64,000 nucleotides of DNA, from positions 1 to 64,000 of the IMG/VR virus record IMGVR_UViG_3300026189_001009; one strand, given 5' to 3'. This DNA is from a virus. Below are positions 8,892-31,238 of this stretch, one piece after another; within the stretch, counting starts at the first letter, position 1, and each line of letters starts with the position of its first letter. The notes beneath the pieces are model-generated. The model was given only the letters and a program-made list of their open reading frames with translations, searched no databases and was not told where the DNA came from. Position numbers and translations under genes: made by a program.

Positions 8892-10100
8892 ATGTTAAAA
8901 ATTAGAAAACAATTTCCAATACTCAGCAAGAAGCTATCCAGTGGTAATAATTTAGTATATCTCGATAGTGCAAATTCTACACAAAAACCACAACGTGTAA
9001 TTGATAGAATGAGTAAATTTATGGCTGAAGAGTATTCAAGTATTGGAAGAAGTATACATGAACTATCAAATCATGCAACCATGCTTGTTGAAGATAGCAG
9101 AACAGCAGTTGCAAATTTTATTAATGCTAAAGAATCAGACGAAATAGTTTTTACTAAATCAGCTACAGAATCAATTAATATGGTAGCCAAATCTTTCGGT
9201 AGAACAATGCAACCAGGTGATGAAATTATCACAACAGAAGTAGAACATCATTCAAATTATATACCTTGGCATCTAGAAAGAAAGTTTAATGATTTTAAGA
9301 TTAAATTTTTAAAGCTAGATGAACAACATCAAATTAATATTGATGAACTAGAATCACTTATAACAGAACGTACAAAAATTATTGCCATTACGCATTTGTC
9401 AAATACAACAGGACAAGTTATAGATATTAAACGTGTTTGTGATATTGCACACAAACATAATATTGCAGTTGCAGTTGACGGTACACAAGGTGCACCACAC
9501 ATGAAAGTTGATGTACAAGATTTAGATTGTGATTTTTATTGTATGAGCGGTCACAAAATGTATGGACCAAGTGGAATTGGTATAATGTATGCCAAACGTA
9601 AATGGATAGATGAATTAGATCCAGCATTAGGCGGTGGCGGAATGATAACAACAGTTGATCATGACAATGTAAGTTATGCTGAAGGTTCTAAAAAATGGGA
9701 AGCAGGCACATTAGCAGTTACAGAAATTGTTGGTTTACATGAAGCAATAAAATTTTATAACGATAATGGTTTTGAAGAAATGCTTGACCATGAAGAAGAA
9801 GTTATAAATTATGCTTATAATGAAATGAAAAAAATTAGTGGTATAGAGTTTATAGGTACTAGTAATAGAAAAGCAGTAATATCATTTAATATAAAAAATA
9901 TACATCACACAGATCTAGCAGAATTACTTGATGCGTATGGTATTGCCACAAGGCCAGGACACCATTGTACACAGATGTTACATAGACAAATTGGTTGGAC
10001 AGGCTCTTGCAGAATATCTACAGGTGTGTATAATAGTAAACAAGAAATTGATTATTTGATTGAATGTTTAAAAAAAATAAGAAATAAATTTGGAGAATAA
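8892..10100 (+). CDS. sufS: SufS-family cysteine desulfurase
   Basis: YLDSANSTQKP, EHHSN, SGHKMYGPSGIG (PLP Lys), RPGHHC catalytic Cys. Confidence 0.95.
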   Translation: MLKIRKQFPILSKKLSSGNNLVYLDSANSTQKPQRVIDRMSKFMAEEYSSIGRSIHELSNHATMLVEDSRTAVANFINAKESDEIVFTKSATESINMVAKSFGRTMQPGDEIITTEVEHHSNYIPWHLERKFNDFKIKFLKLDEQHQINIDELESLITERTKIIAITHLSNTTGQVIDIKRVCDIAHKHNIAVAVDGTQGAPHMKVDVQDLDCDFYCMSGHKMYGPSGIGIMYAKRKWIDELDPALGGGGMITTVDHDNVSYAEGSKKWEAGTLAVTEIVGLHEAIKFYNDNGFEEMLDHEEEVINYAYNEMKKISGIEFIGTSNRKAVISFNIKNIHHTDLAELLDAYGIATRPGHHCTQMLHRQIGWTGSCRISTGVYNSKQEIDYLIECLKKIRNKFGE

Positions 10101-10499
10101 ATGACAGAAGAAACAAAAAGCAACGAGAACTCAAAACTACAAAAAATTGTAGATGAGCTTTCAACTTTGACCGTTATGGAAGCGGCCGACCTTGCTAAAA
10201 AACTTGAAGATGCATGGGGAGTATCGGCACAAGCGGCCATGGCAACAGCAACAGCACCTGCCGAAGCGGCAGAAGAAAAAACAGACTACTCGGTAATTTT
10301 AAAATCATATCCGGACAATAAAAAGATTCCGGCCATTAAAATTATAAGAGCAGAATGTGATTTAGGTTTAAAAGAAGCAAAAGATTTTGTAGAAGCGGCC
10401 CCTAAAGAAGTTAAAGGTGGACTTACAAAAGAAGAAGCTGACGAACTTAAAAAGAAAATTGTTGAAGCTTGTGAAGGTGCTGAAGTTGAAATTAAGTGA
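10101..10499 (+). CDS. rplL: ribosomal protein bL12 (L7/L12), full length
   Basis: [22 protein letters not shown]-terminal domain, Ala-rich hinge, [11 protein letters not shown]...KEEA C-terminal domain. Confidence 0.95.
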
Positions 10500-10713
10500 T
10501 TTAACTTTAAGACAACTACAAATTGAATCTAGTATTGCTTTACAAATACTGCAATCAGCTGATAACCTATCTTTGAGTAAGATAAATCAAAAAGTAAATC
10601 ATGACAGCACTTTGTTTTATACAAGTGTGTTGGAAGAATTTATTGAACAATATAACTGTTTACCAAGTGAAACAGAACAAGCTAAAGATATAAAGATAGT
10701 TTATCCTAACTAA
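10486..10713 (+). CDS. hypothetical protein
   Basis: ORF after rplL; probable TTG start at 10486. Confidence 0.5.
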
Positions 10714-10717
10714 ATTA

Positions 10718-10828
10718 ATGAAAGACCCATTAAGTTATAAAATTAAAAAAATAGTTGAATGGTTATTGATTCAACAAGTTCCAGCTATTCTGGTAATATT
10801 ATTCCTAATTTACTACTTTTTATTCTAA
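10718..10828 (+). CDS. 36-aa single-TM protein
   Basis: Manual translation MKDPLSYKIKKIVEWLLIQQVPAILVILFLIYYFLF. Confidence 0.45.
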   Translation: MKDPLSYKIKKIVEWLLIQQVPAILVILFLIYYFLF

Positions 10829-10962
10829 TCTTGTTTTTCAATATATTTTTTGTAATATATCGTTAAAGGATTGTTTGGTTGATAGCCATATGGTTCTTTT
10901 TTAGAATAGATAGTTTTACGTTTATTTTTTTTCTTGGCAATCTTCTTAGTAGGAGATGCCAT
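10825..10962 (-). CDS. 45-aa basic hypothetical protein
   Basis: Manual translation MASPTKKIAKKKNKRKTIYSKKEPYGYQPNNPL...; overlaps the end of the upstream minus-strand gene. Confidence 0.45.
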   Translation of the reverse strand: MASPTKKIAKKKNKRKTIYSKKEPYGYQPNNPLTIYYKKYIEKQD

Positions 10963-11816: not shown

Positions 11817-11880
11817 AATGTAGGTTGCTTTAGATAGGACTTACATTAAAACAATTAACTTGCTTAAAGGAGGAGTTATT
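11817..11880 (+). promoter_or_regulatory. ROSE-like RNA thermometer in hsp20 5' UTR
   Basis: 5' hairpin AATGTAGGT/ACTTACATT, then TAACTTGCTT-AAAG-GAGGAGTTA hairpin pairing UUGCU (bulged G) with the SD. Confidence 0.7.
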
Positions 11881-12318
11881 ATGACAAGAAATCTATCTAT
11901 TTTTAATCAACTAAGACCTTTTACAGTAGGATTCGATGATGTGTTCGACAACTTCGAAAGAATGTTTGACGGAGATGTATTGAATGTTCCATCTGTAAAC
12001 TATCCACCATACAACATAGTAAAGACTGGTGACAACACTTATGACGTTGAACTTGCACTTGCAGGGTTCGGTAAAGATGACATTAATGTTGAATATGCTG
12101 AAAACCAACTTACTATTAAGTCTGTAAAGAAAGAAGAAAAAGAAGAAAAAGACGGAGTTATCCACAAAGGTATTTCTAAAAGACACTTTGTGAGATCGTT
12201 TACTATCGCAGATGATGTGGAAGTGAAAGGTGCAGAGTTGAAAGATGGTTTGCTTACAGTAGCATTGGAAAGAATTATTCCAGATGCGAAGAAGCCTCGT
12301 ACTATTAAAATTAAATAG
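11881..12318 (+). CDS. hsp20: Hsp20/IbpA small heat-shock protein
   Basis: NYPPYNI, ELALAGF, HKGISKRHF, DGLL, RTIKIK; ATG after GGAGGAG. Confidence 0.95.
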   Translation: MTRNLSIFNQLRPFTVGFDDVFDNFERMFDGDVLNVPSVNYPPYNIVKTGDNTYDVELALAGFGKDDINVEYAENQLTIKSVKKEEKEEKDGVIHKGISKRHFVRSFTIADDVEVKGAELKDGLLTVALERIIPDAKKPRTIKIK

Positions 12319-12354: not shown

Positions 12355-12390
12355 GGCAGAGGGGGTTACGGCTCCCTCTTCCCTTTTTTA
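12355..12390 (+). terminator. rho-independent terminator
   Basis: GGCAGAGGGGG...CTCCCTCTTCC hairpin followed by T6. Confidence 0.75.
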
Positions 12391-12402
12391 CTAAATAACT
12401 GT

Positions 12403-12939
12403 ATGAAACTTTTCTCTCAGTACAATATTTTTTTAGAGTGGTGGTGGTTCTTTTGTGCTATGATTTTAGCAGTATTCGTAGCCGGCACCTTTAACATTTT
12501 CGAGATAATTTGGATAGCAGATCAAACAAAAATTAGTTTTGCTATACTAACTTTGTTTACAGCCATGTCATTGCTTTGTGGCTATGAGTCTTGGAAACTT
12601 AATCAGATAAGAATTAAAAATTATGAATTGGATTCAGATCATCATAAAAGATATGAATCCGGTTGGTTCACATCTGAAATATGTTTGACATTAGGATTGA
12701 TTGGAACAGTGAGTGGATTTATTTTAATGCTTGTAGGAGCATTTGTAGATCTTAATATATCAGACCCAAACAGTGTATCAGAAAGTTTAAAAAAAATGAG
12801 CTTGGGTATGAGTACTGCTTTGTATACTACTCTCGTTGGTTTATTATGTAGTGTTGTATTAAAGGTACAATTTTTTAGACTTGAAATGCACTTTGATAAA
12901 TTTATAAAAGAGAGAAATAATGAAAAGAGAACGTTATAA
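12403..12939 (+). CDS. MotA/TolQ/ExbB proton-channel family protein
   Basis: LGLIGTVSGFI and GMSTALYTTLVGL signatures; TAAATA 5 nt before ATG. Confidence 0.9.
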   Translation: MKLFSQYNIFLEWWWFFCAMILAVFVAGTFNIFEIIWIADQTKISFAILTLFTAMSLLCGYESWKLNQIRIKNYELDSDHHKRYESGWFTSEICLTLGLIGTVSGFILMLVGAFVDLNISDPNSVSESLKKMSLGMSTALYTTLVGLLCSVVLKVQFFRLEMHFDKFIKERNNEKRTL

Positions 12940-14374: not shown

Positions 14375-15340
14375 TTGTTTAAATTTTTTACAGAAAAAAA
14401 ATGGTTTTTATGGGCCTGGTTAGGTTCATTTATTATCCTCTCATCACTTTGGGTACAAGTTAAAATTGACGTAAAAATTAATGAATGGTTTGGTGTGTTT
14501 TATGACATGATCCAAAAAGCACTTGCTACTCCAAACGCAATCACACTGCAAGAATACTTCGCAAGTTTACTGTCATTTATTACACTGGCAGGTATGTACA
14601 TTGCTCTTTACGTTGCAATTAGTTTCTTTACAGCACACTTTTTGTTTAGATGGCGTACAGCTATGGTAGAATGGTATCACAGTGTATATGATAAAGCTCG
14701 TAAAATAGAAGGTGCATCACAAAGGGTGCAAGAAGATACGATCAAGTTTACAAGAATCATGGAAGGCTTGGGTACAAGTTTTATCGAATCAATAATGGTA
14801 CTAGTGCAATTTGTTCCTATACTGCTTGGATTGTCAATTGGTATACCAATATTCTTTTTTGGTGATTGGCAATATGGTTTGATTACAGGAGCCTTAGTTT
14901 GGACATTGGGCGGAACACTATTCCTAATTGGATTAGGTTGGATACTAAGGTTAGTTGGTGTTGAATATGATCTTCAAAAGAAGGAAGCCGCTTATAGAAA
15001 AATATTAGTTATAGCAGAAGATGATAATACTGTAAGACCAAAAACAATTAATGAACTGTTTGCAGATGTACGTTCTATCCATTTTTTAAGCTATGTGCGT
15101 TACCTATATTTCAATATAGGACGTATGGCATACCTACAAGCTAATGTATTGAGTGCTTATGTATTCCTAGCACCAGCCATTGTGGCAGGTGTTGTTACAC
15201 TTGGTGTCATGCAACAAATAATAAGAGCTTTTGGAAGAGTAGAAGGTTCAATGCAGTATCTATTAAAGGCCTGGCCAACTATTATAGAATTGGCTAGTGT
15301 TTATAAACGTTTAAGAGAATTTGAGAGCAAAATAAAGTAA
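14375..15340 (+). CDS. SbmA/BacA-family peptide transporter
   Basis: INEWFGVFYDMIQKAL, FRWRTAM, IEGASQRVQEDT, EAAYRK, WPTIIELASVYKRLREFE. Confidence 0.92.
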   Translation: MFKFFTEKKWFLWAWLGSFIILSSLWVQVKIDVKINEWFGVFYDMIQKALATPNAITLQEYFASLLSFITLAGMYIALYVAISFFTAHFLFRWRTAMVEWYHSVYDKARKIEGASQRVQEDTIKFTRIMEGLGTSFIESIMVLVQFVPILLGLSIGIPIFFFGDWQYGLITGALVWTLGGTLFLIGLGWILRLVGVEYDLQKKEAAYRKILVIAEDDNTVRPKTINELFADVRSIHFLSYVRYLYFNIGRMAYLQANVLSAYVFLAPAIVAGVVTLGVMQQIIRAFGRVEGSMQYLLKAWPTIIELASVYKRLREFESKIK

Positions 15341-15411
15341 TTCCAATACTAATTAAACTTGACAGAAGTTAAATAGATATTATATAATAACTTAATAATA
15401 AGGAATAGATA

Positions 15412-15975
15412 ATGTTTATACAATCGGAGGCAACTCCTAATCCAAATGCTTTAAAATTTTTACCTGGTCGTGAAATTATGGGTAGCGAAAAACCTAAATT
15501 TTATAGGAAAGATGGAGTAGGTAATCCAGCTGAACGTTCACCATTAGCTGAATCTTTATTTGAAGTTGAAGGTGTTGAAGAAGTATTCTTTGGTCAGGAT
15601 TTTATTACCGTTGGTAAAAAAGCAAGTATTGAATGGCCAATACTTAAAACACCAATACTATCTTCAATTAGTAATTTTTTTATGAGCGATGATAATGCTA
15701 CTGTAATAATTTCTAATGAAGAAAACGACAAAAGCAAAGATGACTTAGATGAAGTTACAAAACAAATTATAAATTTGCTCGACACAAGAGTCAGACCAGC
15801 CGTTGCAATGGATGGTGGAGATATTATATTTCATAGTTACACCGAAGGAGTAGTTTATTTAGAATTACATGGTGCCTGTTCAGGTTGTCCTAGCTCTACA
15901 GCTACATTAAAAATGGGAATAGAAAATATGCTTAAACATTACATTCCTGAAATAAGAAGAGTTGAGGCAATATAA
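15412..15975 (+). CDS. NfuA/NifU-family Fe-S carrier (alphaproteobacterial Nfu_N type)
   Basis: MFIQSEATPNPNALKF, VRPAVAMDGGDI, GACSGCPSS. Confidence 0.95.
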   Translation: MFIQSEATPNPNALKFLPGREIMGSEKPKFYRKDGVGNPAERSPLAESLFEVEGVEEVFFGQDFITVGKKASIEWPILKTPILSSISNFFMSDDNATVIISNEENDKSKDDLDEVTKQIINLLDTRVRPAVAMDGGDIIFHSYTEGVVYLELHGACSGCPSSTATLKMGIENMLKHYIPEIRRVEAI

Positions 15976-16283
15976 TGGAACTAGCAGAAATAAAAGAAAA
16001 GGTTATTGCAAATTTAAGACAAGTCCATGATCCAGAAATATCTATTAACATATATGACTTAGGATTAATATATGACATTGATTATGATACTTTTCCAAAA
16101 GTTACAGTAACACACACATTAACATCAGTATTTTGCCCGGCCGCTGATCAAATAATTGACGATATAAAGATGGCAGTAGAAACAGTTGAAGGAGTACAAG
16201 AGTGTATGATTATAACAACATTTGAACCTCCATTTGGTCCAGAGATGATGAGCGAAGAAGCAAGAATGATATTAAACCTATGA
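15975..16283 (+). CDS. SufT/DUF59 Fe-S assembly protein
   Basis: DPEISINIYDLGLIY, TLTSVFCP, MSEEAR. Confidence 0.92.
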   Translation: MELAEIKEKVIANLRQVHDPEISINIYDLGLIYDIDYDTFPKVTVTHTLTSVFCPAADQIIDDIKMAVETVEGVQECMIITTFEPPFGPEMMSEEARMILNL

Positions 16284-16293
16284 AAGGATAACA

Positions 16294-17901
16294 ATGGCAG
16301 ACACAAAACCAGCACCAAGAATGCCCGAAGGCAAGAAGTTTATAAACAAGTTTAACACAGTTATTGAGAAATACAATATAAAAGATTCTGTTTCACAATC
16401 AGGTGTAGAAGTAAGGACACCGATTAATGGCCAATTCTTAGGATGTTTTATTGAAGATGAGTCAGACCAGTTATCAGATAAAATTAAAAGTTTAAAAGAA
16501 GTTCAAAAAACTTGGAGAAATTATCCTGCTCCACAAAGAGGAGATTTAATTAGACAGTTTGGTAATGCTATAAGAGAAGCAAAAAATGATTTGTCTACAA
16601 TGATTACTTTAGAAAATGGAAAAATATATCAAGAGAGCTTAGGTGAAATACAAGAAGTAATAGACATTTGTGATTTTGCAGTTGGATTATCTAGACAGCT
16701 ATATGGATTAACAATGCCAAGCGAAAGACAAGATCATAGAATGCAGGAGATGTGGAACCCATATGGTATTGTCGGAGTAGTAACAGCATTTAATTTTCCA
16801 GCCGCAGTTTTTAGTTGGAACTTTGCAATAGCAAGTGTTGGTGGTAATGTTGTACTTTGGAAGCCATCACCAAAAACACCATTTATATCAATCTTACTTA
16901 AAGCTATTTGGGATAAAACTTGTAAGGAAGCTAACGTAGAATGGGCTAAAGATGTATTTCAAATGTATATGGGTGGCAATGTTCAAGCAGAAAATATATG
17001 CCACAACGAAGACATTAGAGTTGTTAGCTTAACAGGAAGTTCTGCAATGGGTAAAAAACTAGGTCCTATTGTACAAGAAAGATTTGGTAAACTAATAATG
17101 GAACTAGGTGGCAACAATGCAATGATAGTTACACCTAATGCAAATCAAAAACTAGCACTAAAAAGCATATTGTTTAGTGCAGTAGGCACAGCAGGTCAAA
17201 GATGTACAACACTTAGAAGACTAATTGTTCACAATAGTATTAAAGAAAGTTTTGTTAAAAAACTTGTAAGGTATTACTCTACAGTTACATCAGGTGATCC
17301 ATTTGAATCAGATAAGTTAATTGGTCCACTGATTAGTACAGAATCAGTTAGCAAGATGCAACAGGTTTTGGATCAATGTAGAAAAAATGGACACACAGTA
17401 CATGGTGGTGCAATGCTAACTTCACAATACTATATTATGAAGATGCAGTTCAATTTAGAAAACAAAGAACAAACTGTTGACGACATGGAAAAACAAAATC
17501 AATATGTAGCACCAGCAATTGTGGATTTATCTAGTAAAGATGACATAGTTAAAACTGAAACATTTGCTCCTATACTTTATGTCATGGGATATGATGATTT
17601 AGATGAAGCCATTGCTTTACAAAATGATGTGCCGCAAGGATTAAGCAGTTGTATATTCACTGATAACTTAAAAGAATCAGAAAGATTTATTGGTGCTAAC
17701 GGATCAGACTGTGGTATTGTTAATGTCAATATCGGACCGTCGGGTGCAGAAATAGGCGGAGCCTTTGGTGGAGAAAAAGAAACTGGTGGCGGAAGAGAAT
17801 CAGGTTCTGATGCATGGAAACAATATATGAAAAGATCAACAGTTACCATTAATTACGGAGACGATTTGCCTTTAGCACAAGGTGTGAGTTTTGATGTGTA
17901 A
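16294..17901 (+). CDS. aldehyde dehydrogenase family 7 (alpha-aminoadipate semialdehyde/piperideine-6-carboxylate dehydrogenase-like)
   Basis: AVGLSRQLYG, AFNFP, MELGGNNA, GTAGQRCTT, GAEIGGAFGGEKETGGGRESGSDAWKQYM. Confidence 0.92.
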   Translation: MADTKPAPRMPEGKKFINKFNTVIEKYNIKDSVSQSGVEVRTPINGQFLGCFIEDESDQLSDKIKSLKEVQKTWRNYPAPQRGDLIRQFGNAIREAKNDLSTMITLENGKIYQESLGEIQEVIDICDFAVGLSRQLYGLTMPSERQDHRMQEMWNPYGIVGVVTAFNFPAAVFSWNFAIASVGGNVVLWKPSPKTPFISILLKAIWDKTCKEANVEWAKDVFQMYMGGNVQAENICHNEDIRVVSLTGSSAMGKKLGPIVQERFGKLIMELGGNNAMIVTPNANQKLALKSILFSAVGTAGQRCTTLRRLIVHNSIKESFVKKLVRYYSTVTSGDPFESDKLIGPLISTESVSKMQQVLDQCRKNGHTVHGGAMLTSQYYIMKMQFNLENKEQTVDDMEKQNQYVAPAIVDLSSKDDIVKTETFAPILYVMGYDDLDEAIALQNDVPQGLSSCIFTDNLKESERFIGANGSDCGIVNVNIGPSGAEIGGAFGGEKETGGGRESGSDAWKQYMKRSTVTINYGDDLPLAQGVSFDV

Positions 17902-18989
17902 TGACATGGGTCAATAGATATAACGCTAAAGAAAATCTTCAAACAGTTACTGAAACAAAAGGACCTTGGATAAACGGAAAGTTTGATGCAAGAATGTCTG
18001 GCGGTTGTAACATTTTTGGTTATGATACTACCATATGGGAAAATGTTAAGAAGCAAGAGTTGTTTATGTTTAGCACAGCAGAATATAAAGCTGATCAATA
18101 TGAAGAACTAGCAAAACTATTAAAATACAAAAGCCTTAATGGAGTATACTATTCAGGATCATCAGGAAGTGATGCAGTTGAAACAGCAGTAAGAATAGCA
18201 TTTGATGTTAACAAGAAAAATAAAATTGTTTCAAGACAATCCACATGGCACGGCGGAACTATATTATCTAGTAGTTTAGGCAATCATAGATACTTTAAAA
18301 ATTATGAGTCCATGTATACAACTAATGTTGTACGTAAACCAATGCCTGACAATCCACCATACACTAACCTAAGTGAACTGGTAGCAAGTGATTTAGAGTT
18401 TTTAAAACAGCAAAAAGATGTTAGTGCATTTATTTGTGAACCACTACCAACTTGGAGTCATGGTCTCAAGTATAAATTTGATAGATCTGATTGTTATAAT
18501 GAATTACGAGAATATTGTGATAAGAATGAAATTGTTTTAATTTTTGATGAAGTAATGACAGGATTCAAAACAGGAAAAAGATACTTCACTGAATATCTAG
18601 ATATTGAACCTGACTTATTATGCTTGTCAAAAGGTATTACAGCAGGTGTAATACCGTTCAGCACAGTACTTGGAAGAACAGACTACTTAGAAAAGTTACA
18701 GCACGGACACACATGGTCCGGACATTATTTGGGCGTTGTAGCCGCAATTGAAACTGTAAAACAGGTTAACAAGTGGCAATCTAATATATTAGACATGAAT
18801 AAACAGTATGGACATTACTTTGACAACGTATTAGGGTGTTTTTTTAGCACAGATACTAAGAATGTAAGGTTTAGTGATAAAGTAATATATGTACATAAAA
18901 ATATTACAGGAGCAACAGTATTTACTTTGCCGCTAAATATACAAAAAGAAGACTTTGATTTTTTAGTAAAAGAAGTTATAATACAATAA
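17901..18989 (+). CDS. class III PLP aminotransferase (divergent)
   Basis: SGSDAVETA, WHGGT, IFDEVMTGF, DLLCLSKGITAG, HGHTWSG. Confidence 0.88.
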   Translation: MTWVNRYNAKENLQTVTETKGPWINGKFDARMSGGCNIFGYDTTIWENVKKQELFMFSTAEYKADQYEELAKLLKYKSLNGVYYSGSSGSDAVETAVRIAFDVNKKNKIVSRQSTWHGGTILSSSLGNHRYFKNYESMYTTNVVRKPMPDNPPYTNLSELVASDLEFLKQQKDVSAFICEPLPTWSHGLKYKFDRSDCYNELREYCDKNEIVLIFDEVMTGFKTGKRYFTEYLDIEPDLLCLSKGITAGVIPFSTVLGRTDYLEKLQHGHTWSGHYLGVVAAIETVKQVNKWQSNILDMNKQYGHYFDNVLGCFFSTDTKNVRFSDKVIYVHKNITGATVFTLPLNIQKEDFDFLVKEVIIQ

Positions 18990-19802
18990 ATGAATATGGA
19001 AAAAACAAACTATTTTAAATGGATGCTATTCTTCTCGCAGGTTATTGCACATCTGAGCATAATTCCTATGATTATGTACGGCACATGGATACATTGGACA
19101 ATAGCATTCTTTGTATATTTCATGACAGGCTGTTTTGGAATGACAATGACATTTCACAGATTGTTATCACATAAAAGTTGGAATGCTCCAAAATGGTTTT
19201 ACAAGTTTGGTACACTATGTGGGTTTTATGGACTTACAGGCTCAAGCATTGGTTGGGTAGCAGTACACAGAGAGCATCATCATCATACAGATAAAGAAGG
19301 TGATCCTCATTCGCCTAGACATCACGGATTTTTTAAAGTACAATGGTTGAGTATGTTTGAAACACCAAAACCAAAATATGCGATACATTTGATAAGAGAC
19401 AAGTTTCATATGTTTTTGCACAGATGGTATTTTCAGTTACATCTTTTAATAGCAGGAGTTTGGTTAATGATCGACCCAATGCTATTAGTGGCCGCTTATC
19501 TATTTCCTGCAATGGTGCTTTGGAATGCAGGCTCGTTTATTAATACTTTGACTCATATGTTTGGTTATAGAAATTATGATACAACAGATGATTCAACAAA
19601 TATACCTGTGTTGGGTATATTAATGTGGGGTGAAGGTTGGCACAACAACCACCATGCTAATCCTAATGATCCTAGTTTTAAAAGAAAGTGGTGGGAGTTT
19701 GATGCCGGAGGATTCTTTATTAAATTGCTTTCGCAAGATAAAGTAACAAATGAATTTAAACATAAGAACAATGCTACTGGTACAGGAGAAATAGTAAAAT
19801 GA
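18990..19802 (+). CDS. delta-9-type fatty acid desaturase
   Basis: His boxes FHRLLSH, HREHH..DPHSP, GEGWHNNHH. Confidence 0.93.
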   Translation: MNMEKTNYFKWMLFFSQVIAHLSIIPMIMYGTWIHWTIAFFVYFMTGCFGMTMTFHRLLSHKSWNAPKWFYKFGTLCGFYGLTGSSIGWVAVHREHHHHTDKEGDPHSPRHHGFFKVQWLSMFETPKPKYAIHLIRDKFHMFLHRWYFQLHLLIAGVWLMIDPMLLVAAYLFPAMVLWNAGSFINTLTHMFGYRNYDTTDDSTNIPVLGILMWGEGWHNNHHANPNDPSFKRKWWEFDAGGFFIKLLSQDKVTNEFKHKNNATGTGEIVK

Positions 19803-20536
19803 CAACAGTAAGAAGAAAATATCAGTTACCTAGTGTAGCACCTATTCCTGGAATTAAATTTGATATTGATAAGTTAAGAGAAGAAGTATCTAGATTAAAC
19901 AGTGAATGGGTAAATGTATTCCAAGCTAATAGAGGATTGTGTGCAACACATGAAGAACTAGCCAATGACAACTATCATCATTTTGATCAAGTCAATTTAA
20001 CTTACTATGAAAAATCTTTAACTGATGTACTAGACTTAACTGATCTTAAAAAAGAATGTAAAGTAAGAGCAAACAGTGACGACTTAGGAAAAACAAGAAT
20101 ACAAAAATACAGAACAAAAATTACAAGAGCAGAAAATTTGCCACCTGCTATGAATGAACATAACTGGTATCACCCTTTACCAATATACCAAGGTTCATAT
20201 TTAAAAGAGGCAATTGAAAATCAATTTAATGCAACACCAATTAGAGTTAGACTTACAAGAATACGTGCTGGAAAATACTTAACACCTCATATTGATTATG
20301 GACCAGAATATGCAATTAGAGTCATAGTACCAATACAAGGTACAAGTGGTGTTTATAATAAAGTTTGGCGTAAAGGCGTAGAAGAAGAATATGAAATGCC
20401 TGCAGATGGTTCAGCATACTTTTTAAATGTTGGATTAAAACATTCAGTTGAACACAGAGGAGATGAAGATAGAATTTCGTTGATGTTTTCTTTACCAACA
20501 CAAGAAGATATCGAAACACTAACCTATGAGGAGTAA
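19799..20536 (+). CDS. Asp/Asn beta-hydroxylase-like Fe(II)/2OG oxygenase
   Basis: RVRLTRI...LTPHIDY, ADGSAYFLN...HSVEH...DRISL. Confidence 0.7.
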   Translation: MTTVRRKYQLPSVAPIPGIKFDIDKLREEVSRLNSEWVNVFQANRGLCATHEELANDNYHHFDQVNLTYYEKSLTDVLDLTDLKKECKVRANSDDLGKTRIQKYRTKITRAENLPPAMNEHNWYHPLPIYQGSYLKEAIENQFNATPIRVRLTRIRAGKYLTPHIDYGPEYAIRVIVPIQGTSGVYNKVWRKGVEEEYEMPADGSAYFLNVGLKHSVEHRGDEDRISLMFSLPTQEDIETLTYEE

Positions 20537-20544
20537 TAATAAAA

Positions 20545-21357
20545 ATGATAGTACCGTTAAAGAGTACAGAACAAATACTAGAAGCAACACCAGATAAGTT
20601 AAAAGAAATAGCAACAGCAATTCACAAAGAAGGATGTGCTGTATTCTATGAACAAGAATTTAATGAATCGCAAATCATTGAAATGCAAAAACGGTTTGGT
20701 GAGTGTGAAGCACCCGGTCAGTTTATGAATCCAAAAGATTATCCAGAACTATTTCTAGTTACTGGTAAAAAAGTAGATGGTAAGAAAATTGGAATGTTTG
20801 GAGATACTGAATTAGGATGGCATTCGAATGGTAATTCTAGACACTTGATTGATAAAATTTTAATTAGTCTATATTGTATTACTGAAGATATTAACACAAC
20901 GTTAAGTGTGTGTCATACATCAAAACCATTTTATGATTTAAGTAAAGACGAACAAGAGTACTGGAAGTCAATTAAAATTAGATTGAAATTTCAAAACAAC
21001 ACAATCTATGACTTAGAAGAAGATGATCCAGAATTAGAATTTATGAGTAAGAACAAAGGTAGTATTAGGAATCTTGTCGATAAACACCCTCACACAGGAG
21101 AATACTATTTTTATTTTCCATACCATTTCATCATAAAAGCATGGGAAGGCAAAACATTAATTGATCATAAAGAAATGATTGAAAAACTAAAACCAATTAT
21201 TTTTAAATCAAAATATCAGTATCACCATATATTTAAAAAAGGTGACTTATTGATGATGGATCAGTTTACAAGTCTACATAGAAGAACACCTGTGCTAGAT
21301 AACAACAGATTGTTATGGAGACTAGCATCGGACTTTAAGAATATCTATAAGGACTAA
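20545..21357 (+). CDS. TauD/TfdA-family dioxygenase
   Basis: ELGWHSNG, LVDKHPHTG, GDLLMMDQFTSLHRR...RLLWR. Confidence 0.8.
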   Translation: MIVPLKSTEQILEATPDKLKEIATAIHKEGCAVFYEQEFNESQIIEMQKRFGECEAPGQFMNPKDYPELFLVTGKKVDGKKIGMFGDTELGWHSNGNSRHLIDKILISLYCITEDINTTLSVCHTSKPFYDLSKDEQEYWKSIKIRLKFQNNTIYDLEEDDPELEFMSKNKGSIRNLVDKHPHTGEYYFYFPYHFIIKAWEGKTLIDHKEMIEKLKPIIFKSKYQYHHIFKKGDLLMMDQFTSLHRRTPVLDNNRLLWRLASDFKNIYKD

Positions 21358-21359
21358 TC

Positions 21360-22016
21360 ATGAACGAAATACTATGGCCTAAGATCGATGGCAAGCCAGT
21401 AACTTGGAAAGTTAAAATGAAAAAAGAATATTTCATTGAAGATATGGGATATCTAGATTCTAAAGTTGCAAGACCAATTTTTGATAAACAAGCTGAAATC
21501 ATAATTGAAAACAAGTCAAAAGGCATAGTCGATATTGGTTGTAGAATGGGAATTGTAAATCCATTATTACATAAGCTAGGTTATACTGACTATAACTATA
21601 TGGGATTTGATACATCACCAATACCTATTGATCAAGCTAATAAAGATTGGAAAGATTATAAAAACATCGAGTACAGAGTTGGCACATGGGATGATGAAGA
21701 AGTTTTAAAAGTAAACTTTGATGTTGATACACTAATAATGAGTGGTGTATTAATTTATTGTCAACCATGTCATGAAGAATTTTATGCAGAGTCTGGACAT
21801 CATACAGATCTATTTGATAGATTAGTTAATTACTATAAGCCAAAAAATGTTATTATACAAGAAACACTCGCTGAACAAACAAATATACATGAAGATAATA
21901 AACATGAAACAATTGATTTATCTCATTATAGAAGTTTTGATCATAAGTTTTACGAGTTTGATTTAGATATGTGGCTAGGACATAGAGCAGTGATTGACGT
22001 AAGGATATCTAAATGA
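21360..22016 (+). CDS. class I SAM-dependent methyltransferase
   Basis: IVDIGCRMG, YMGFDTS, SGVLIY. Confidence 0.8.
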   Translation: MNEILWPKIDGKPVTWKVKMKKEYFIEDMGYLDSKVARPIFDKQAEIIIENKSKGIVDIGCRMGIVNPLLHKLGYTDYNYMGFDTSPIPIDQANKDWKDYKNIEYRVGTWDDEEVLKVNFDVDTLIMSGVLIYCQPCHEEFYAESGHHTDLFDRLVNYYKPKNVIIQETLAEQTNIHEDNKHETIDLSHYRSFDHKFYEFDLDMWLGHRAVIDVRISK

Positions 22017-22618
22017 AAACAATAGCATTAGGTTGTAGTGCATCACCTGACAGTATGAATCATAAAGGATTACAGATAATTGACAATTACTGTGAGTTTG
22101 ATAGCATTGATAGTTTAGCAAATTATAATATTCCTGTAATTAATACAAGTGCATCTGATGGAGTTGTACCAAATGAAGTTGATAGATTAATTACAAAATT
22201 ATTTGAATATGATAAGTTTGTATTTGCTGTACCAGAAATGACTGGACAAATGGGTGCGGCATTTAAAAACTTTTTAGATTGGCTGGTAGTAAAAGGATAC
22301 ATGAATTCAAATTTGGGTACAGCATACCCAATTAGTAAAAAAGATATTGTATTATTAACTTTTACTCCTGCAGGTAGTGAAGGTGGATCAAGACATTTCC
22401 CAAAAACAAAAGAAATTTTAATTAAATTAGGAGCAAATGTAGTTTATACGAAATGTTTTAATAATTGTTGGAAAGAATTACTGCCAGAAAATTATGAACA
22501 TTATAAAAAAGACGCAGAAATTATCAAACGATATTTGTCTTATACAAATAAAACAGGTAATGGTTGGCAAACAAAATATTTAGATTGGTTGAATAAATGG
22601 AATACTTTAAAGAATTAA
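22013..22618 (+). CDS. NAD(P)H-dependent FMN reductase
   Basis: FAVPEMTG...FKNFLDW, GG motif. Confidence 0.8.
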   Translation: MKTIALGCSASPDSMNHKGLQIIDNYCEFDSIDSLANYNIPVINTSASDGVVPNEVDRLITKLFEYDKFVFAVPEMTGQMGAAFKNFLDWLVVKGYMNSNLGTAYPISKKDIVLLTFTPAGSEGGSRHFPKTKEILIKLGANVVYTKCFNNCWKELLPENYEHYKKDAEIIKRYLSYTNKTGNGWQTKYLDWLNKWNTLKN

Positions 22619-23184
22619 ATTTAGATTTAGCAAAACAGTTTAATGAAGTATATGACTTCTTAGAATCTTCAAATGAAGAATTTAAAAATGTTAATTATTA
22701 TGGTGAGTTTGGTTATGGTGTTTTTACAAGTTTTTTTAAAGAAAACAACTTCAAAGAACTAGCAGAGTTTTCAGAAAATCATAAAGACTATTTGAGTAAT
22801 TATATGAGAATGTTAACAACAGCACCTGTAGACAGTGATAAAAGAAGTGGATATAGTATACATTTAGAAAAATGGACAGCACATTTAAACTGCTCTATGT
22901 TTGGTATGAATAAAGATGCAGTTAGTTGTTGGTATAAACCAAAAGATATTGAAGTCGTGAAAGAAAAACAAGTAGAAACAGATGAAGCATGGTATTGTCA
23001 AGACAGCAGTTTATTTGAATTGGTCGAAAGTCATGTTTTATTAGATAAGTCTATGTTATTTAGAGCCAATGCATATCACACAGTGCATAATAACAGCAAT
23101 GAAAAAAGATGTGTAGTTAGCTGGCCTTTTAAAGAATTAGACTGGGATAGGATAGTAGAGTATGCAGGAAAAAACTTTAATTAA
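22597..23184 (+). CDS. hypothetical cupin/2OG-like protein
   Basis: HLE...LFRANAYHTVHN...RCVVSW resembles the paralogous oxygenase family. Confidence 0.5.
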   Translation: MEYFKELNLDLAKQFNEVYDFLESSNEEFKNVNYYGEFGYGVFTSFFKENNFKELAEFSENHKDYLSNYMRMLTTAPVDSDKRSGYSIHLEKWTAHLNCSMFGMNKDAVSCWYKPKDIEVVKEKQVETDEAWYCQDSSLFELVESHVLLDKSMLFRANAYHTVHNNSNEKRCVVSWPFKELDWDRIVEYAGKNFN

Positions 23185-24136
23185 TTTAGACGACATCAGC
23201 AATGAAACATTTGGTGTGAGTAAAGCACTACACCCACCGATTGACTCTGTTGTTAAAAATGAGTTATCTTATAAAACTTATGGTGATTATATTGAAAGCA
23301 CCAACGAAAATTCTAAAACTTCATCGTCAAAAAGAAGAGATGATTGGGCTAATTGTCAACTAGAAGTACGTAATTATTTAAAGCCACTAGTTAATTTAGA
23401 AGAGTTTATCTTTTCATATCCTACAAATGGTATACATGAAAGTATTGATTGGATGTGCAATAAAGTAGAAGAGTATCAAGTTTTCAAAGGAGAGTATAGA
23501 TATTCTTCTTTTATTAAGAAGCCAGTTAATATTGCAACAACTGTAGAAGATGTGATGCCGGGTGTTCCTTTGTATATGAGCAATCCTTTTAGTGCTACAG
23601 GTAACTTTGATAAAAGATATGACGAAGTAGGAAAAAGAGGTGATGTACCAATATATTTAGATATGGCATTCGCAGGTACAACAGGAGAACATAATATTAT
23701 ATTGCATAGTAACGTAAGAGAAGTGTTTTGGAGTTGTTCTAAACCATATGGAGTAGGATTGTTGAGAGCAGGAATTAGATTTAGTAGAAAAGAAGAACCA
23801 ATACAGAGAGAACTACAAGGTGTGGGTTATTTTAATCATGCAATGATAGATGTGTTCAATGCAGTAACTTCTACCAGCAGTGTATTTGCAAAGAAAAAAG
23901 AATATAAAGAATTACAAGAGCAAGTATGTAAAAAATTTGATCTTACGCCAAGCGACTCTTATATTGTAGCAACATCAAGAGATGAACAATGGGACAGATT
24001 TAAAAGAGAAAATGGAATTAATAGAATATGTCTTACATCAGCATATGAAAAAATAGCAGACAGCTCAAACGATGAACCAAAAAATAGATTAGAACAAATG
24101 GAAATGCTTGGTGATGATATAGTGATGGGATGCTAA
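23162..24136 (+). CDS. PLP-dependent fold-type I enzyme (aminotransferase I/II-like)
   Basis: YMSNPFSATG, LDMAF, SCSKPYG...RAGIR. Confidence 0.7.
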   Translation: MQEKTLINLDDISNETFGVSKALHPPIDSVVKNELSYKTYGDYIESTNENSKTSSSKRRDDWANCQLEVRNYLKPLVNLEEFIFSYPTNGIHESIDWMCNKVEEYQVFKGEYRYSSFIKKPVNIATTVEDVMPGVPLYMSNPFSATGNFDKRYDEVGKRGDVPIYLDMAFAGTTGEHNIILHSNVREVFWSCSKPYGVGLLRAGIRFSRKEEPIQRELQGVGYFNHAMIDVFNAVTSTSSVFAKKKEYKELQEQVCKKFDLTPSDSYIVATSRDEQWDRFKRENGINRICLTSAYEKIADSSNDEPKNRLEQMEMLGDDIVMGC

Positions 24137-24705
24137 CTATGAATGATTATCCATTTTCAAAAAAATATTTTCAAAAGATTGATGGTATTGATATAGATCA
24201 TAAGAAATTAATTAGAACATATTATGATTTAGATATTGACGGAATACAAAAAAAGTGTGAGTATCAAGTACATATACATCATACAGGTATTGAAGATCCG
24301 GAAAAACAAGTTGCTGATTTTAAAGCCAGTAACGGTGCTCCGGCAATGTTTCAAGAGAATGATTTTATACACATTGCTGATATATTTAAAAATACCTACA
24401 TTGAAACAGTAATTGATAAAGTTTCAGAACATTTCAAAGATGAATTTTTAGTATGTAGAGGTAGATTTATTTCGATGGGACCACAGAAATGTTTATTATG
24501 GCATAACGATCAGTACCCAAGAGTACATATACCTATCTTTTCAAATCCAGGTGCAAGAATGATTATTAATGATGATGTATTTCATTTAGACGTAGGCAAT
24601 GTTTGGTTTACAGATACAAGACAACAACATTCAGCCTTTAATGCAAATATTGAAAGAAGAAGAATTCATGCAGTATTTGTTTTGTATCCAAAGGAGTCTA
24701 ATTAA
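24130..24705 (+). CDS. Asp/Asn beta-hydroxylase-like Fe(II)/2OG oxygenase
   Basis: WHND...RVHIPIFSNP...DTRQQHSAFN...RIH. Confidence 0.75.
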   Translation: MLTMNDYPFSKKYFQKIDGIDIDHKKLIRTYYDLDIDGIQKKCEYQVHIHHTGIEDPEKQVADFKASNGAPAMFQENDFIHIADIFKNTYIETVIDKVSEHFKDEFLVCRGRFISMGPQKCLLWHNDQYPRVHIPIFSNPGARMIINDDVFHLDVGNVWFTDTRQQHSAFNANIERRRIHAVFVLYPKESN

Positions 24706-25343
24706 TGACTGAGTTTAGAGTAGAAAGATATGCAAGACAACGATCTAAATTCAAACATTTGATTGAAGAATTTAGATTAGAAACTTTTAAAGAAGGAAAT
24801 GAGAGTTTATCATATGAGAAATATGATCCTGATTATGCTGACTTAGAAACTTGGATGGTGTTCGCTGACGATAAATTAATATCAATTAGTGCTGTAGAAT
24901 CATCTCACTATACAGGCGACTCACATATTGCGGCAAGAGTTTGTCGATATCATATTTTAAAACCATGGAGATTTACACACTGTGGATTGATGATGGCTGA
25001 CAGTCAAATTGAATGGGCTAGAAATGAAGGCTTCCAAATATTATATTGTACACATGATGTGGCAAATAAAGCCATTAATGCTTTGTATCAAAGAAAAAGA
25101 CAGATGACTGATCCTGCTTTTAAAAAGTGGACAAACACTGAATGGTATATAAACCTACAATTAGAAAAGAATTTTCTATTTAAAGTATCACCTAAAACTG
25201 ATTTCTTACAGTTTGTTTATAGTATTAATTTAAATGACAAAGAATTTAAGTGGAAACCTAAAAAAAACATAGTATGGTATGAACACGATGGTGAAAACAT
25301 CAATCCAGATCATGTTTTAGAAATTGGAAAAGTTGTACATTAA
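24705..25343 (+). CDS. GNAT-like acyltransferase (divergent)
   Basis: KLISISAV, ARVCRYHILKPWR..G, WARNEGF.ILY, N...ALYQ pattern. Confidence 0.5.
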   Translation: MTEFRVERYARQRSKFKHLIEEFRLETFKEGNESLSYEKYDPDYADLETWMVFADDKLISISAVESSHYTGDSHIAARVCRYHILKPWRFTHCGLMMADSQIEWARNEGFQILYCTHDVANKAINALYQRKRQMTDPAFKKWTNTEWYINLQLEKNFLFKVSPKTDFLQFVYSINLNDKEFKWKPKKNIVWYEHDGENINPDHVLEIGKVVH

Positions 25344-25344
25344 C

Positions 25345-25372
25345 TTGACTTTGTACATTTTTCTGTTATAAT
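25345..25372 (+). promoter_or_regulatory. sigma70-type promoter for clpP
   Basis: TTGACT-N16-TATAAT with extended TG. Confidence 0.65.
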
Positions 25373-29962: not shown

Positions 29963-31238
29963 TAAAACATTTTGTCCTTTACCTTTTATGCACAGTCATC
30001 ATTCTGTGGCAGGAAAGTTCAAACCTTGCTGTAATGCCGAGTCACCTCCGCACAAAGGTAATCCTTATACCACCAAAGATCATTCATTGTTTTCTTGGTT
30101 TGACAGTGAACCAATGCAACAGCTACGAAAAGATTTATTAAACGGTGTACAAAATCCTATGTGTAGTGTCTGTTGGAAACAAGAAGCAACTGGAGGAAAA
30201 AGCTATAGGCATAGTTCTTTAATCAAAGTAAGTCAAGATAATGGTGCATTCAAACAATCACATTTAAAAGAACCAAAGATTACTTTTTTAGATTTAAAAT
30301 TTAGCAATGAATGTAACTTTGCTTGTAGAATGTGTGACTATACTAATTCTCATCAGATATTGAAAGACATGGTTGCCTTAGAAGATAGCAATGTAGAATT
30401 ACCAAATCACTGGAGAAGAAGTCCTACGCAAGAAAAATATGCTGATCCTAAAACAGGTATATTCAGCTCATTAACTATAGAAGATGTTTTACGAGCATTG
30501 CCAACAGTAAGAATATTAAAAGTGACTGGCGGCGAACCTATGATTAGCAAACCATTTTTAACACTACTTGACCATGCAATTGAAAAAGGTTACACAGATC
30601 AGATTAACTTATATATTACTACTAATGCAAGTAAGTTCAATGATAGAATCATGAAAAAGATTTTGAAGTTTCGTAAGGTATACTTTACTGTAAGTTGCGA
30701 TGGATATGGCACTACATATGACTATATCAGATATCCTTACACATGGAAGATGTTCAGCAAAAGAATAGTTGACTTTCTTGAAGCACATCAAAATAAGCAT
30801 GATACGATACGATTGGGATTTTCGACAGTACCACAAATTTACAATATAGAAAACATACACAAACTCACTCAATGGATAGCTGATTTAGATAAAAAGTATG
30901 GAGCCATGGACGGTGACGGGCAAAGCAAATGTTTTATATCACATCATATACAAACACATTTATGGCCTACAACTTCAGAGCTACAATATTATAATGCACC
31001 ATTAAGCATATTAAAAAATACACATGATGCCTTACAAAAACTTTTAGAGCAAGATACTAGCAGAGACTTTGAAAGTTTCTTGAATTCTTTAAAACACTCC
31101 ATTGACAATTACAGTGATGTATCATCTGAAACAAACAAAGATATTATAAAAACAACAGTTGACATCGATAAAGTTAGAAATCAAGATTACAGTAATCTAT
31201 TAGAAAAGGAAACAGTAAAATGGCTGAACACTCTTTAG
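29946..31238 (+). CDS. radical SAM protein, N-terminal Twitch domain
   Basis: FCPLPF...PCC...CSVC; CNFACRMC; TGGEP; ATG start at 29946. Confidence 0.9.
   Translation: MATLYSKTFCPLPFMHSHHSVAGKFKPCCNAESPPHKGNPYTTKDHSLFSWFDSEPMQQLRKDLLNGVQNPMCSVCWKQEATGGKSYRHSSLIKVSQDNGAFKQSHLKEPKITFLDLKFSNECNFACRMCDYTNSHQILKDMVALEDSNVELPNHWRRSPTQEKYADPKTGIFSSLTIEDVLRALPTVRILKVTGGEPMISKPFLTLLDHAIEKGYTDQINLYITTNASKFNDRIMKKILKFRKVYFTVSCDGYGTTYDYIRYPYTWKMFSKRIVDFLEAHQNKHDTIRLGFSTVPQIYNIENIHKLTQWIADLDKKYGAMDGDGQSKCFISHHIQTHLWPTTSELQYYNAPLSILKNTHDALQKLLEQDTSRDFESFLNSLKHSIDNYSDVSSETNKDIIKTTVDIDKVRNQDYSNLLEKETVKWLNTL

Follow-up and report, generated by a model that had tools for sequence, protein, structure and literature searches.

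Ornithine lipids and related aminolipids are formed and tailored by the N-acyltransferase OlsB, the AspH-type hydroxylase OlsC, the di-iron hydroxylase OlsE, and the methyltransferase OlsG, and pathways of the caprazamycin type also include methylation and a fatty acyl group. Here, we analyze a block of 11 phage genes encoding several of these enzyme classes (positions 16294-25343, + strand), which lies in the window, that is, the first 64 kb (64,000 nucleotides) of the 123.6-kb virus record IMGVR_UViG_3300026189_001009 from IMG/VR; genes are designated below by their first position. In caprazamycin biosynthesis, Cpz10 is a beta-hydroxylase acting on the amino acid side chain of a nucleoside antibiotic intermediate, and Cpz15 is a TauD-type dioxygenase (PMC9814697). 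Among marine myophages, cyanophages carry membrane fatty-acid desaturases as auxiliary genes, for which a term search of the paper found no description of a cassette context (PMC5776448), whereas the desaturase considered here is fixed in a multi-enzyme block. Pelagimyophages possess a hypervariable "host recognition cluster" with radical SAM (S-adenosylmethionine) cassettes, lipopolysaccharide (LPS)-modifying genes, and an Asp/Asn beta-hydroxylase core gene, and the account of that cluster, in its available portion, does not describe the cassette reported below (PMC7029224). The closest known counterpart appears to be a gene block of Pelagibacter phage Mosig EXVC030M, which is not annotated as a unit; its genes are annotated singly in the record and are not discussed in the genome announcement (PMC7892664). 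The resemblance to the Ols or caprazamycin-type pathways seems to be confined to likeness of enzyme classes. A first reading of the block, made without database searches (hereafter, the sequence-only reading), had proposed a lysine-derived or aminolipid product and called such clusters rarely described in phages; in line with the latter, literature searches turned up no paper in which the cassette is treated as a unit, although the supplementary tables of PMC7029224 may list its genes.

Comparison with related virus records indicates that the 11 genes are a composite and not one lysine pathway. The gene for an ALDH7-type aldehyde dehydrogenase (16294-17901) appears to belong to the conserved backbone of a huge-phage lineage, together with genes for SbmA, an Fe-S assembly protein, ClpP, and radical SAM enzymes; the genes for a class-III aminotransferase (17901-18989) and an orphan protein (22597-23184) are, on the same comparisons, lineage-specific additions; and the other 8 are predicted to constitute a cassette that is specific to phages, travels as one block between marine myophages (a cultured SAR11 phage among them), and in the window phage has apparently been set between ALDH7 and ClpP. 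The completeness of the source record is estimated at 23%, which implies a very large phage. Because the record contains phage genes (DNA polymerase, Clp ATPase, DNA ligase, tail-fibre-like gene or genes, along with 4 tRNAs) and because long stretches of it are syntenic with a complete virus record of 328,149 bp (G004; terminal repeats, CheckV 100), the block can be taken to be phage-borne. The claim of 11 closely packed genes is borne out by the listing of open reading frames (ORFs), which has exactly 11 on the + strand between 16294 and 25343, with junctions ranging from a 23-base overlap to an 8-base gap and no competing long ORFs on the opposite strand of that interval. Megablast of the whole block against GenBank phages returned no match, and 5 of the 10 window proteins from 16294 to 24130 fell into no family in PHROGs v4 (24705 was outside that scan). 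The family labels initially given to the genes held for 10 of the 11; the exception is 22597, discussed below.

The conservation of the cassette was assessed by scanning IMG/VR with an alignment of its GNAT protein (24705), which yielded at least 80 loci whose gene-order strings were compared. For the frequencies, 53 of the 80 loci were dropped because contig ends were too close; the 27 kept have flanks of 7 kb or more on either side and represent 18 distinct GNAT sequences. A pyridoxal 5'-phosphate (PLP) enzyme is encoded in all 27, a TauD-type oxygenase in 25, a desaturase in 24, a methyltransferase in 23, and an AspH-like oxygenase (A or B) in 21, followed by the accessory families f10 (16 loci), flavin mononucleotide (FMN) reductase (10), M76 (9), AspM81 (7), and peroxiredoxin (5); ALDH, the class-III aminotransferase, and the orphan 22597 are each absent from the 27. 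Across the 80 loci, the usual order is desaturase, PLP enzyme, TauD (FMN reductase, peroxiredoxin, M76, TauD), methyltransferase, GNAT, and AspH, where the members in brackets are optional. The minimal form consists of desaturase, PLP enzyme, AspH, GNAT, and AspH, the common form of desaturase, PLP enzyme, TauD, methyltransferase, GNAT, and AspH, and the long forms are extended by unknowns and by genes for FMN reductase, peroxiredoxin, and a second TauD. The window carries desaturase, PLP enzyme, TauD, methyltransferase, GNAT, and AspH-like genes plus the FMN reductase in one co-directional run. Most of the block is thus a conserved multi-enzyme unit and not a chance neighbourhood, as the 80 loci and Mosig attest, and to this extent the sequence-only reading is supported. 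The gene-order comparison that it had suggested gave a divided answer: 5-8 of the cassette genes recur together in relatives, whereas the ALDH7 and class-III aminotransferase genes lie outside, and the internal order varies.

When the GNAT protein, the PLP enzyme, and the TauD protein were compared by tblastn with 50,697 GenBank phage records, each search returned a single record, that of Mosig (GenBank MT647606, Kyanoviridae; host Ca. Pelagibacter ubique HTCC1062); phage HTVC008M gave no match to any of the three proteins. Genes Mosig_00072-00081 lie on one strand and encode, in this order, an AspH-like protein, an N-acetyltransferase, a methylase, TauD, a hypothetical protein, a peroxiredoxin, an FMN reductase, an aminotransferase, a fatty-acid desaturase, and a second AspH-like protein. 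Homologues of 7 window genes are found in this run, with identities of 75% for TauD (Mosig_00075), 60% for GNAT (Mosig_00073), 42% for the FMN reductase (Mosig_00078), 37% for the methyltransferase (Mosig_00074), 34% for AspH (Mosig_00072), 32% for the desaturase, and 29% for the PLP enzyme. The Mosig block differs from that of the window in gene order, in the addition of the peroxiredoxin and a 218-residue unknown, in the lack of ALDH7, the class-III aminotransferase, and the orphan 22597, and in its setting, where it abuts tail-fibre genes and has late-type TATAAATA motifs upstream.

In two virus loci (L008 and L016), the cassette nearest to that of the window (60-84% identity) sits between homologues of window genes 53339 and 54048, so the cassette occupies different backbone sites in related phages. 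The homologues of 23162, 19799, and 18990 in the 328-kb relative G004 lie approximately 200 kb from its ALDH7 region, among radical SAM genes. A scan of 185,579 species genomes with the GNAT protein recovered one relative only, in a Bdellovibrionales metagenome-assembled genome (MAG), where it is solitary, its neighbours being housekeeping and mobile-looking genes; TauD was not found in this MAG with the window query. The accessory families gave few leads: representatives of f10, f12, f18, f21, f25, and M76 had no Pfam match, that of f20 had one weak match (CAF1C_H4-bd, E = 0.006, 17.2 bits, cut-off 22.7), hhalign among the unknown families linked only M76 and f25 (71%), and the protein atlas returned viral "hypothetical" clusters together with a weak AspH lead for f10.

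The first two genes of the block had prompted the proposal of a lysine pathway, in which 17901 would act as a lysine 6-aminotransferase and the ALDH7 enzyme would oxidize the resulting semialdehyde to alpha-aminoadipate, feeding the tailoring enzymes downstream, much as a lysine 6-aminotransferase and Pcd/ALDH7 are paired in bacterial lysine catabolism. Some observations favour this proposal. The 16294 protein (+ strand), similar to piperidine-6-carboxylate (P6C)/alpha-aminoadipic semialdehyde dehydrogenases, is an aldehyde dehydrogenase by Pfam (E = 8e-113); it scores 689.3 bits against the NCBIfam model of L-piperidine-6-carboxylate dehydrogenase (NF050084, cut-off 730), with the runner-up model at 247 bits, and its best solved relatives are 6dbb (2e-153), Pcd (6rtr, 2e-148), and human ALDH7A1 (approximately 1e-137), with the next ALDH class at 2.5e-54. 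By these comparisons, it is assigned to the ALDH7/Pcd type, well apart from other ALDH classes. The protein also has an insertion of approximately 25 residues (about residues 375-400) that is missing in solved ALDH7 structures, where the PDB alignments break in two, and an ALDH7 homologue is also encoded in the 636-kb uncultured huge phage record LR756504.1 (47% identity). The adjoining gene 17901 (+ strand), which overlaps the ALDH7 gene by one base, encodes a member of Aminotran_3 (PF00202; E = 4.8e-37, 128 bits, cut-off 30.5), whose alignment to the omega-transaminase 3hmu pairs LSKG with AKG and FDEV with ADEV, matching the PLP-binding lysine and aspartate.

The pairing of these two genes is kept in no relative examined. 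None of the 80 related cassette loci has either gene. In G004, the order SbmA, FeS_assembly_P, ALDH7, ClpP, a homologue of 26675, and two radical SAM genes is the same as in the window, with ALDH7 59% and ClpP 77% identical, yet ClpP follows ALDH7 directly, and a search of 5 relatives, G004 included, for homologues of the class-III aminotransferase was negative. A single-protein pattern scan of viral contigs with 17901 returned zero loci and an alignment-based scan returned 5, in all of which ALDH7 and the cassette genes are absent nearby (4 of the 5 contigs are short). ALDH7 and the aminotransferase are thus scattered independently in relatives, an outcome that the sequence-only reading itself had counted against a single pathway, and its lysine-to-alpha-aminoadipate core is not supported. 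In NCBIfam, 17901 scores highest with BioA (TIGR00508, 141.8 bits, cut-off 405), and a lysine aminotransferase model does not appear among the best 25 of the 69 families matched; its nearest named relatives are likewise BioA proteins, of at most 36% identity, and not lysine 6-aminotransferases, alongside a small family of relatives of approximately 360 residues. Unlike the enzymes of bacterial lysine catabolism, which are approximately 420-450 residues long, the 362-residue window protein is truncated, with a shortened C-terminal domain. A different arrangement is seen at 9191-10950 of the one long contig (L095), where a 166-residue AspH-like gene precedes the BioA-like aminotransferase and a carbamoyltransferase, a PD-(D/E)XK nuclease, and 2-oxoglutarate (2OG) oxygenases are near; these genes may be a second small module.

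The orphan protein of 195 residues encoded by 22597-23184 (+ strand) had been called cupin-like, a label that finds no backing in Pfam, NCBIfam, PHROGs, or PDB (phmmer at E up to 10), all of which were without a match. In hhalign, it scored 1% against the AspH-like profile and nothing usable against 7 unknown cassette families; it is a singleton in the clustering of the fetched loci, with a relative only at the edge of a near-identical contig (L002).

Turning to the cassette itself, the gene at 18990-19802 (+ strand; cassette core) encodes a membrane di-iron desaturase of the stearoyl-CoA (delta-9) type, matching FA_desaturase in Pfam (4.9e-17), the DesA family in NCBIfam (2e-30), and the stearoyl-CoA desaturase SCD1 (4zyo) at 4.6e-19 over query residues 19-248 (approximately 230 residues), with the His boxes HRLxSH, HRxHH, and HNxHH aligned. 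At 270 residues, it is shorter than the crystallised cellular desaturases (318-339 residues), and it is the only one of the 11 proteins with hydrophobic segments in a crude Kyte-Doolittle scan. It is predicted to be an acyl-CoA or lipid delta-9-type desaturase, which favours the aminolipid idea. The NADPH-dependent FMN reductase-like flavoprotein encoded at 22013-22618 (+ strand; Pfam FMN_red, 8e-14), a frequent accessory, is a candidate electron donor; in loci L004-L007 an Fpr gene adjoins the desaturase gene and could offer an alternative electron supply.

Three 2OG/Fe(II) oxygenases are encoded in the window cassette. Two of them, A (19799-20536, + strand; cassette core) and B (24130-24705, + strand; usually at one cassette end), belong to the same AspH-like family, although their Pfam matches to Asp_Arg_Hydrox are weak (22.7 bits, 1e-4, and 28.7 bits, 1.3e-6, respectively; cut-off 22.6). 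The HxD...H triad is kept in A, and its residues H164, D166, and H215 are invariant in the family alignment; identity of A reaches 82% in L017. The nearest solved relatives of the family profile are the beta-hydroxylase Cpz10 (7v4f, 1.7e-15) and L-proline cis-4-hydroxylase (1e-10). The third oxygenase, of the TauD/TfdA family (20545-21357, + strand), is the most conserved cassette gene; it matches TauD (PF02668) over positions 22-266 of 267 (5e-20, 72.9 bits, cut-off 27). Its PDB matches, to 6l86 and ScoE, are weak (best 4e-5), and the protein atlas returned viral TauD clusters only. The adjoining core gene (21360-22016, + strand) encodes a class I SAM methyltransferase with a weak Pfam match (8e-5, below cut-offs).

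Fold checks on 23162 and 24705, advised in the sequence-only reading, were carried out by Foldseek on models and gave an aminotransferase class I/II fold and a GNAT fold, respectively. The core gene 23162 (23162-24136, + strand) encodes a short protein without a Pfam match, whose family alignment has invariant N141, P142, D167, K194, R202, N287, and R288 (a C-terminal NR). The family profile matches HisC (3ffh) at E = 2e-4, and the AlphaFold model (predicted local distance difference test [pLDDT] 86) matches the same structure in Foldseek at E = 2.8e-10; matches in VIA include HisC, CobD/CobC, and PatB-type C-S lyases (Z 19-20, root-mean-square deviation [rmsd] 3.4-4.0 over 266-275 residues). 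As modeled, it would be a PLP enzyme of the aminotransferase class I/II fold (HisC/CobD/PatB-like). The last gene of the block (24705-25343, + strand; cassette core) encodes a GNAT-fold acyl- or acetyltransferase that is extended at its C terminus and carries an invariant CRYHILK motif. Its Pfam match to GNAT is below the cut-off (E = 0.004, 17.8 bits, cut-off 20.7), and the model (pLDDT 89) gives a Foldseek E of 4.9e-7 and a VIA Z of 12.2 (rmsd 2.5 over 138 residues); the Foldseek likenesses include PaiA, ArsN/phosphinothricin acetyltransferase, and streptothricin acetyltransferase.

With these assignments, the cassette shares with the Ols aminolipid system an acyltransferase fold, AspH-type 2OG oxygenases, a membrane di-iron enzyme, and a methyltransferase, but the window GNAT protein matches generic acetyltransferases only, with no link to OlsB found in sequence or structure; an OlsB-type N-acyltransferase is not among its Pfam or listed structural matches, absence from such a list not being exclusion. 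Likewise, the di-iron enzyme is of the delta-9 desaturase type and not of the FA_hydroxylase type, and no OlsA-like O-acyltransferase was seen in the cassette. With caprazamycin tailoring, the cassette has in common the TauD-type and PLP enzymes (PMC9814697) and the nearest solved relative of its AspH-like family, Cpz10, but the likeness is at the family level only, the PDB matches of the window TauD protein being weak, and a transaldolase, a glycosyltransferase, and a nucleotidyltransferase were not seen in the cassette. Pathways for ectoine, carnitine, dimethylsulfoniopropionate, sphingolipid, biotin, arsinothricin, and DNA hypermodification were also considered and set aside; each has only 2-4 enzyme classes in common with the block, and none has support from curated models.

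Two kinds of genes recur beside the cassette. Tail-fibre genes abut it in Mosig, and in 27 of the 65 loci with room downstream this tail-fibre block begins no more than 3 kb from the GNAT gene; in L008, the cassette adjoins a homologue of the tail-fibre-like window gene 52282. Radical SAM genes are adjacent to the cassette in many loci, and the PLP family has its own connection to them. The 715-residue radical SAM protein encoded at 31220-33367 (+ strand) is homologous over its first 317 residues to the 23162 family (hhalign 99.1%, E = 5e-19, lysine kept) and is, by this comparison, an aminotransferase-fold domain fused to a SPASM/twitch-type radical SAM domain. A further paralogue is encoded at 88745-89614 of the same record. 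In the Bdellovibrionales MAG (L101, G006:C1:1065000-1084900), a PLP-family gene lies among four SPASM-type radical SAM genes and one of f11 type, the last being 46% identical to that of the phage, and the cluster mirrors phage loci L004-L007; the GNAT relative of this MAG is approximately 765 kb from the PLP-family gene. Divergent from the Mosig cassette, genes Mosig_00082-00094 (L014, 16991-27306) encode a nitroreductase-like protein, three MoaA-like radical SAM proteins, a DegT-type aminotransferase, a carbamoyltransferase, and a methyltransferase, and look like another tailoring set, undescribed in the genome announcement.

Upstream of the block, in the same co-directional run, lie the backbone genes for a NifU/Nfu-like protein (15412-15975, + strand; Pfam) and a FeS_assembly_P/SufT-like protein (15975-16283, + strand; Pfam), the latter with a syntenic homologue in G004; these two Fe-S assembly genes follow an SbmA/BacA-like inner-membrane peptide transporter gene (14375-15340; Pfam 5e-134), whose homologue in G004 is 90% identical. 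Around the block there are just two intergenic gaps, and the two best sigma-70-type matches fall in them. One, at 15359-15388 (+ strand), in the gap between the SbmA-like and nfuA-like genes, reads TTGACA-18-TATAAT (12/12) and is a possible start of the transcription unit holding the block; the other, at 25345-25372 (+ strand; 11/12, with an extended -10 TG), in the 53-base gap before clpP, likely marks the 3' boundary of that unit. Both are consensus matches only, and the unit between them would extend from nfuA through the GNAT gene; over the whole region, sigma-70-like sites are not enriched (91 found versus 98.9 expected). Upstream of the block, just one terminator-like hairpin is convincing; this strong hairpin, at 12358-12379, separates ORFs 11860-12318 and 12403-12939 and has 9 pairs followed by a T run. 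Within the window, the T4-late-type motif TATAAATA is present only 3 times, versus 11.7 expected by shuffling, each time in an intergenic position (11807, 51945, and 52204), with none between 11814 and 51945; the latter two sites are upstream of the tail-fibre-like gene 52282. Shortly before the Mosig cassette, the same motif is present in two copies, and it also precedes the cassette in 6 of 46 other loci; a sigma-70 scan upstream of the cassette in the 46 loci gave mixed results, with best scores of 7-11 of 12.

From the gene content, the family assignments, and the conservation and mobility of the block, we infer a common substrate, an order of steps, a lipid product, and a role in the envelope, and we tentatively propose that the cassette encodes a single pathway for oxidative tailoring of an amine-bearing, fatty-acyl-linked molecule, possibly a component of envelope lipid or LPS, a reading to which we assign a probability of roughly 40%. 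That 5-8 genes co-occur strictly and move jointly across wide divergence and very different phage backbones argues for one pathway. The desaturase family suggests a long acyl chain in the substrate; the carboxylate- or phosphate-binding arginines of the PLP enzyme, together with oxygenases resembling Cpz10 and proline hydroxylase, suggest an amino-acid-like moiety; and the GNAT protein suggests N-acylation of an amine. Under this scheme, the PLP enzyme would aminate or deaminate a precursor bearing a carboxylate or phosphate, the GNAT protein would acylate the amine, the methyltransferase and at least three 2OG oxygenases would decorate the head group, and the desaturase, with electrons supplied via the FMN reductase (or Fpr), would act on the long acyl chain of the same molecule. 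The product would be an amine-bearing, fatty-acyl-linked compound; the likeliest candidate is a modified lipid or LPS component in the envelope of the infected cell, as suggested by the cassette's travelling with host-recognition genes and by the LPS-modifying genes reported from that region of pelagimyophages (PMC7029224).

Several observations weigh against this proposal. None of the family assignments, drawn as they are from sequence and models, would fix a substrate. The nearest solved relatives of the AspH-like family act on soluble small molecules, being amino-acid hydroxylases, and neither 19799 nor 24130 has a hydrophobic segment in the crude scan; no LpxO/OlsC entry is among the PDB matches of the family profile, although such structures may simply be unsolved. 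The GNAT protein ties generic acetyltransferases at Z of approximately 11-12, none of them lipid-specific, and the model of 23162 matches several kinds of enzyme equally well at Z 19-20 (aminotransferases, C-S lyases, a decarboxylase, and an oxidase), so that more than one reaction type would fit. No O-acyltransferase, acyl carrier, or flippase was seen in the cassette. The timing signals conflict, with an early-type site in the window versus the late-type TATAAATA at Mosig and 6 of 46 loci. Finally, the fusion and the Bdellovibrionales cluster, which occurs without the rest of the cassette, raise the prospect that the primary partners of the PLP family may be radical SAM enzymes.

Some of the same facts would fit a small, soluble metabolite of amino acid or nucleoside origin, such as an osmolyte, a signal, or an antibiotic-like compound, made or tailored by actinomycete-like steps, with host lipids or an acyl side chain as the separate target of the desaturase. 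The proximity of the AspH-like profile to Cpz10 and to a hydroxylase of free L-proline points this way, as do the sharing of one nucleoside scaffold by a TauD-type enzyme, PLP enzymes, and this hydroxylase in the caprazamycin pathway (PMC9814697), the resemblance of the GNAT protein to the small-molecule acetyltransferases named above, and the lack of hydrophobic segments in all cassette proteins other than the desaturase. We nevertheless consider this explanation unlikely: a membrane acyl desaturase in 24 of 27 loci argues for an acyl chain in the shared substrate, and no scaffold-forming enzyme (nonribosomal peptide synthetase, polyketide synthase, ligase, or glycosyltransferase) is conserved in the cassette.

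The cassette might instead modify phage tail fibres or a peptide post-translationally, by hydroxylation, methylation, and acetylation in concert with neighbouring radical SAM enzymes. Such a role would suit the tail-fibre genes beside the cassette in Mosig, in L008, and in 27 of 65 loci, the T4-late-type motif before the cassette in Mosig and 6 of 46 loci, the adjacent radical SAM genes, and the extra prolyl-hydroxylase-like oxygenases of some cassette versions. It would leave the desaturase and the aminotransferase-fold PLP enzyme, the most constant members, without an obvious role; moreover, the window cassette is far from structural genes, behind an early-type promoter-like site in the long interval devoid of TATAAATA, and no conserved small precursor-like ORF was seen inside the cassette. 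We judge this possibility improbable as well. More doubtful still is a loose island of independent auxiliary metabolic genes, linked by regulation or by cofactors (Fe, 2-oxoglutarate, reductant) and not by a product. Variable regions of marine myophages are rich in 2OG oxygenases, as in L095, where an AspH-like gene, a 2OG oxygenase gene, and a carbamoyltransferase gene surround an unrelated aminotransferase gene; the cassette order varies, with members duplicated or lost; and the window block shows interleaving of unrelated genes (ALDH7, class-III aminotransferase, orphan). However, 5 families occur together in 23-27 of 27 loci at identities down to 46% for GNAT and 29% for the PLP enzyme, and the set has moved as a block between genome sites and between phages of 141 kb (T4-like) and more than 300 kb. 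The lysine pathway, for all that its ALDH is of the right type and overlaps an aminotransferase gene with the expected PLP residues, is very improbable given the unconserved pair and the BioA-like, truncated aminotransferase.

A bolder version of the proposed acyl-amine pathway, which we regard as a rather doubtful conjecture, is that the cassette encodes a phage-invented pathway, no such unit having been found in the cellular genomes scanned, which would make a new amino compound, acylated, hydroxylated, and methylated, in or on the envelope of infected SAR11-type cells. The product would alter the surface seen by the proteins of the neighbouring tail-fibre genes, resulting in receptor masking or superinfection exclusion, and the cassette would travel with the host-recognition region because its product changes the surface that tail fibres recognise. 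The PLP enzyme would then represent a new reaction class linking radical SAM chemistry to amination.

No bacterial group in the sea is more abundant than SAR11, and little is understood of its myophages. At least 80 viral contigs and one cultured SAR11 phage share a recurring block of 7-10 genes that matches no characterised pathway, and its recurrence and spread point to phage-specific chemistry in infected cells on a large scale. More generally, the locus teaches that a tidy row of biosynthetic-looking phage genes can turn out to be a mosaic, here made up of a backbone gene, lineage-specific additions, and a mobile cassette. Because Mosig and its host HTCC1062 are both in culture, the question of what the cassette makes is directly testable.

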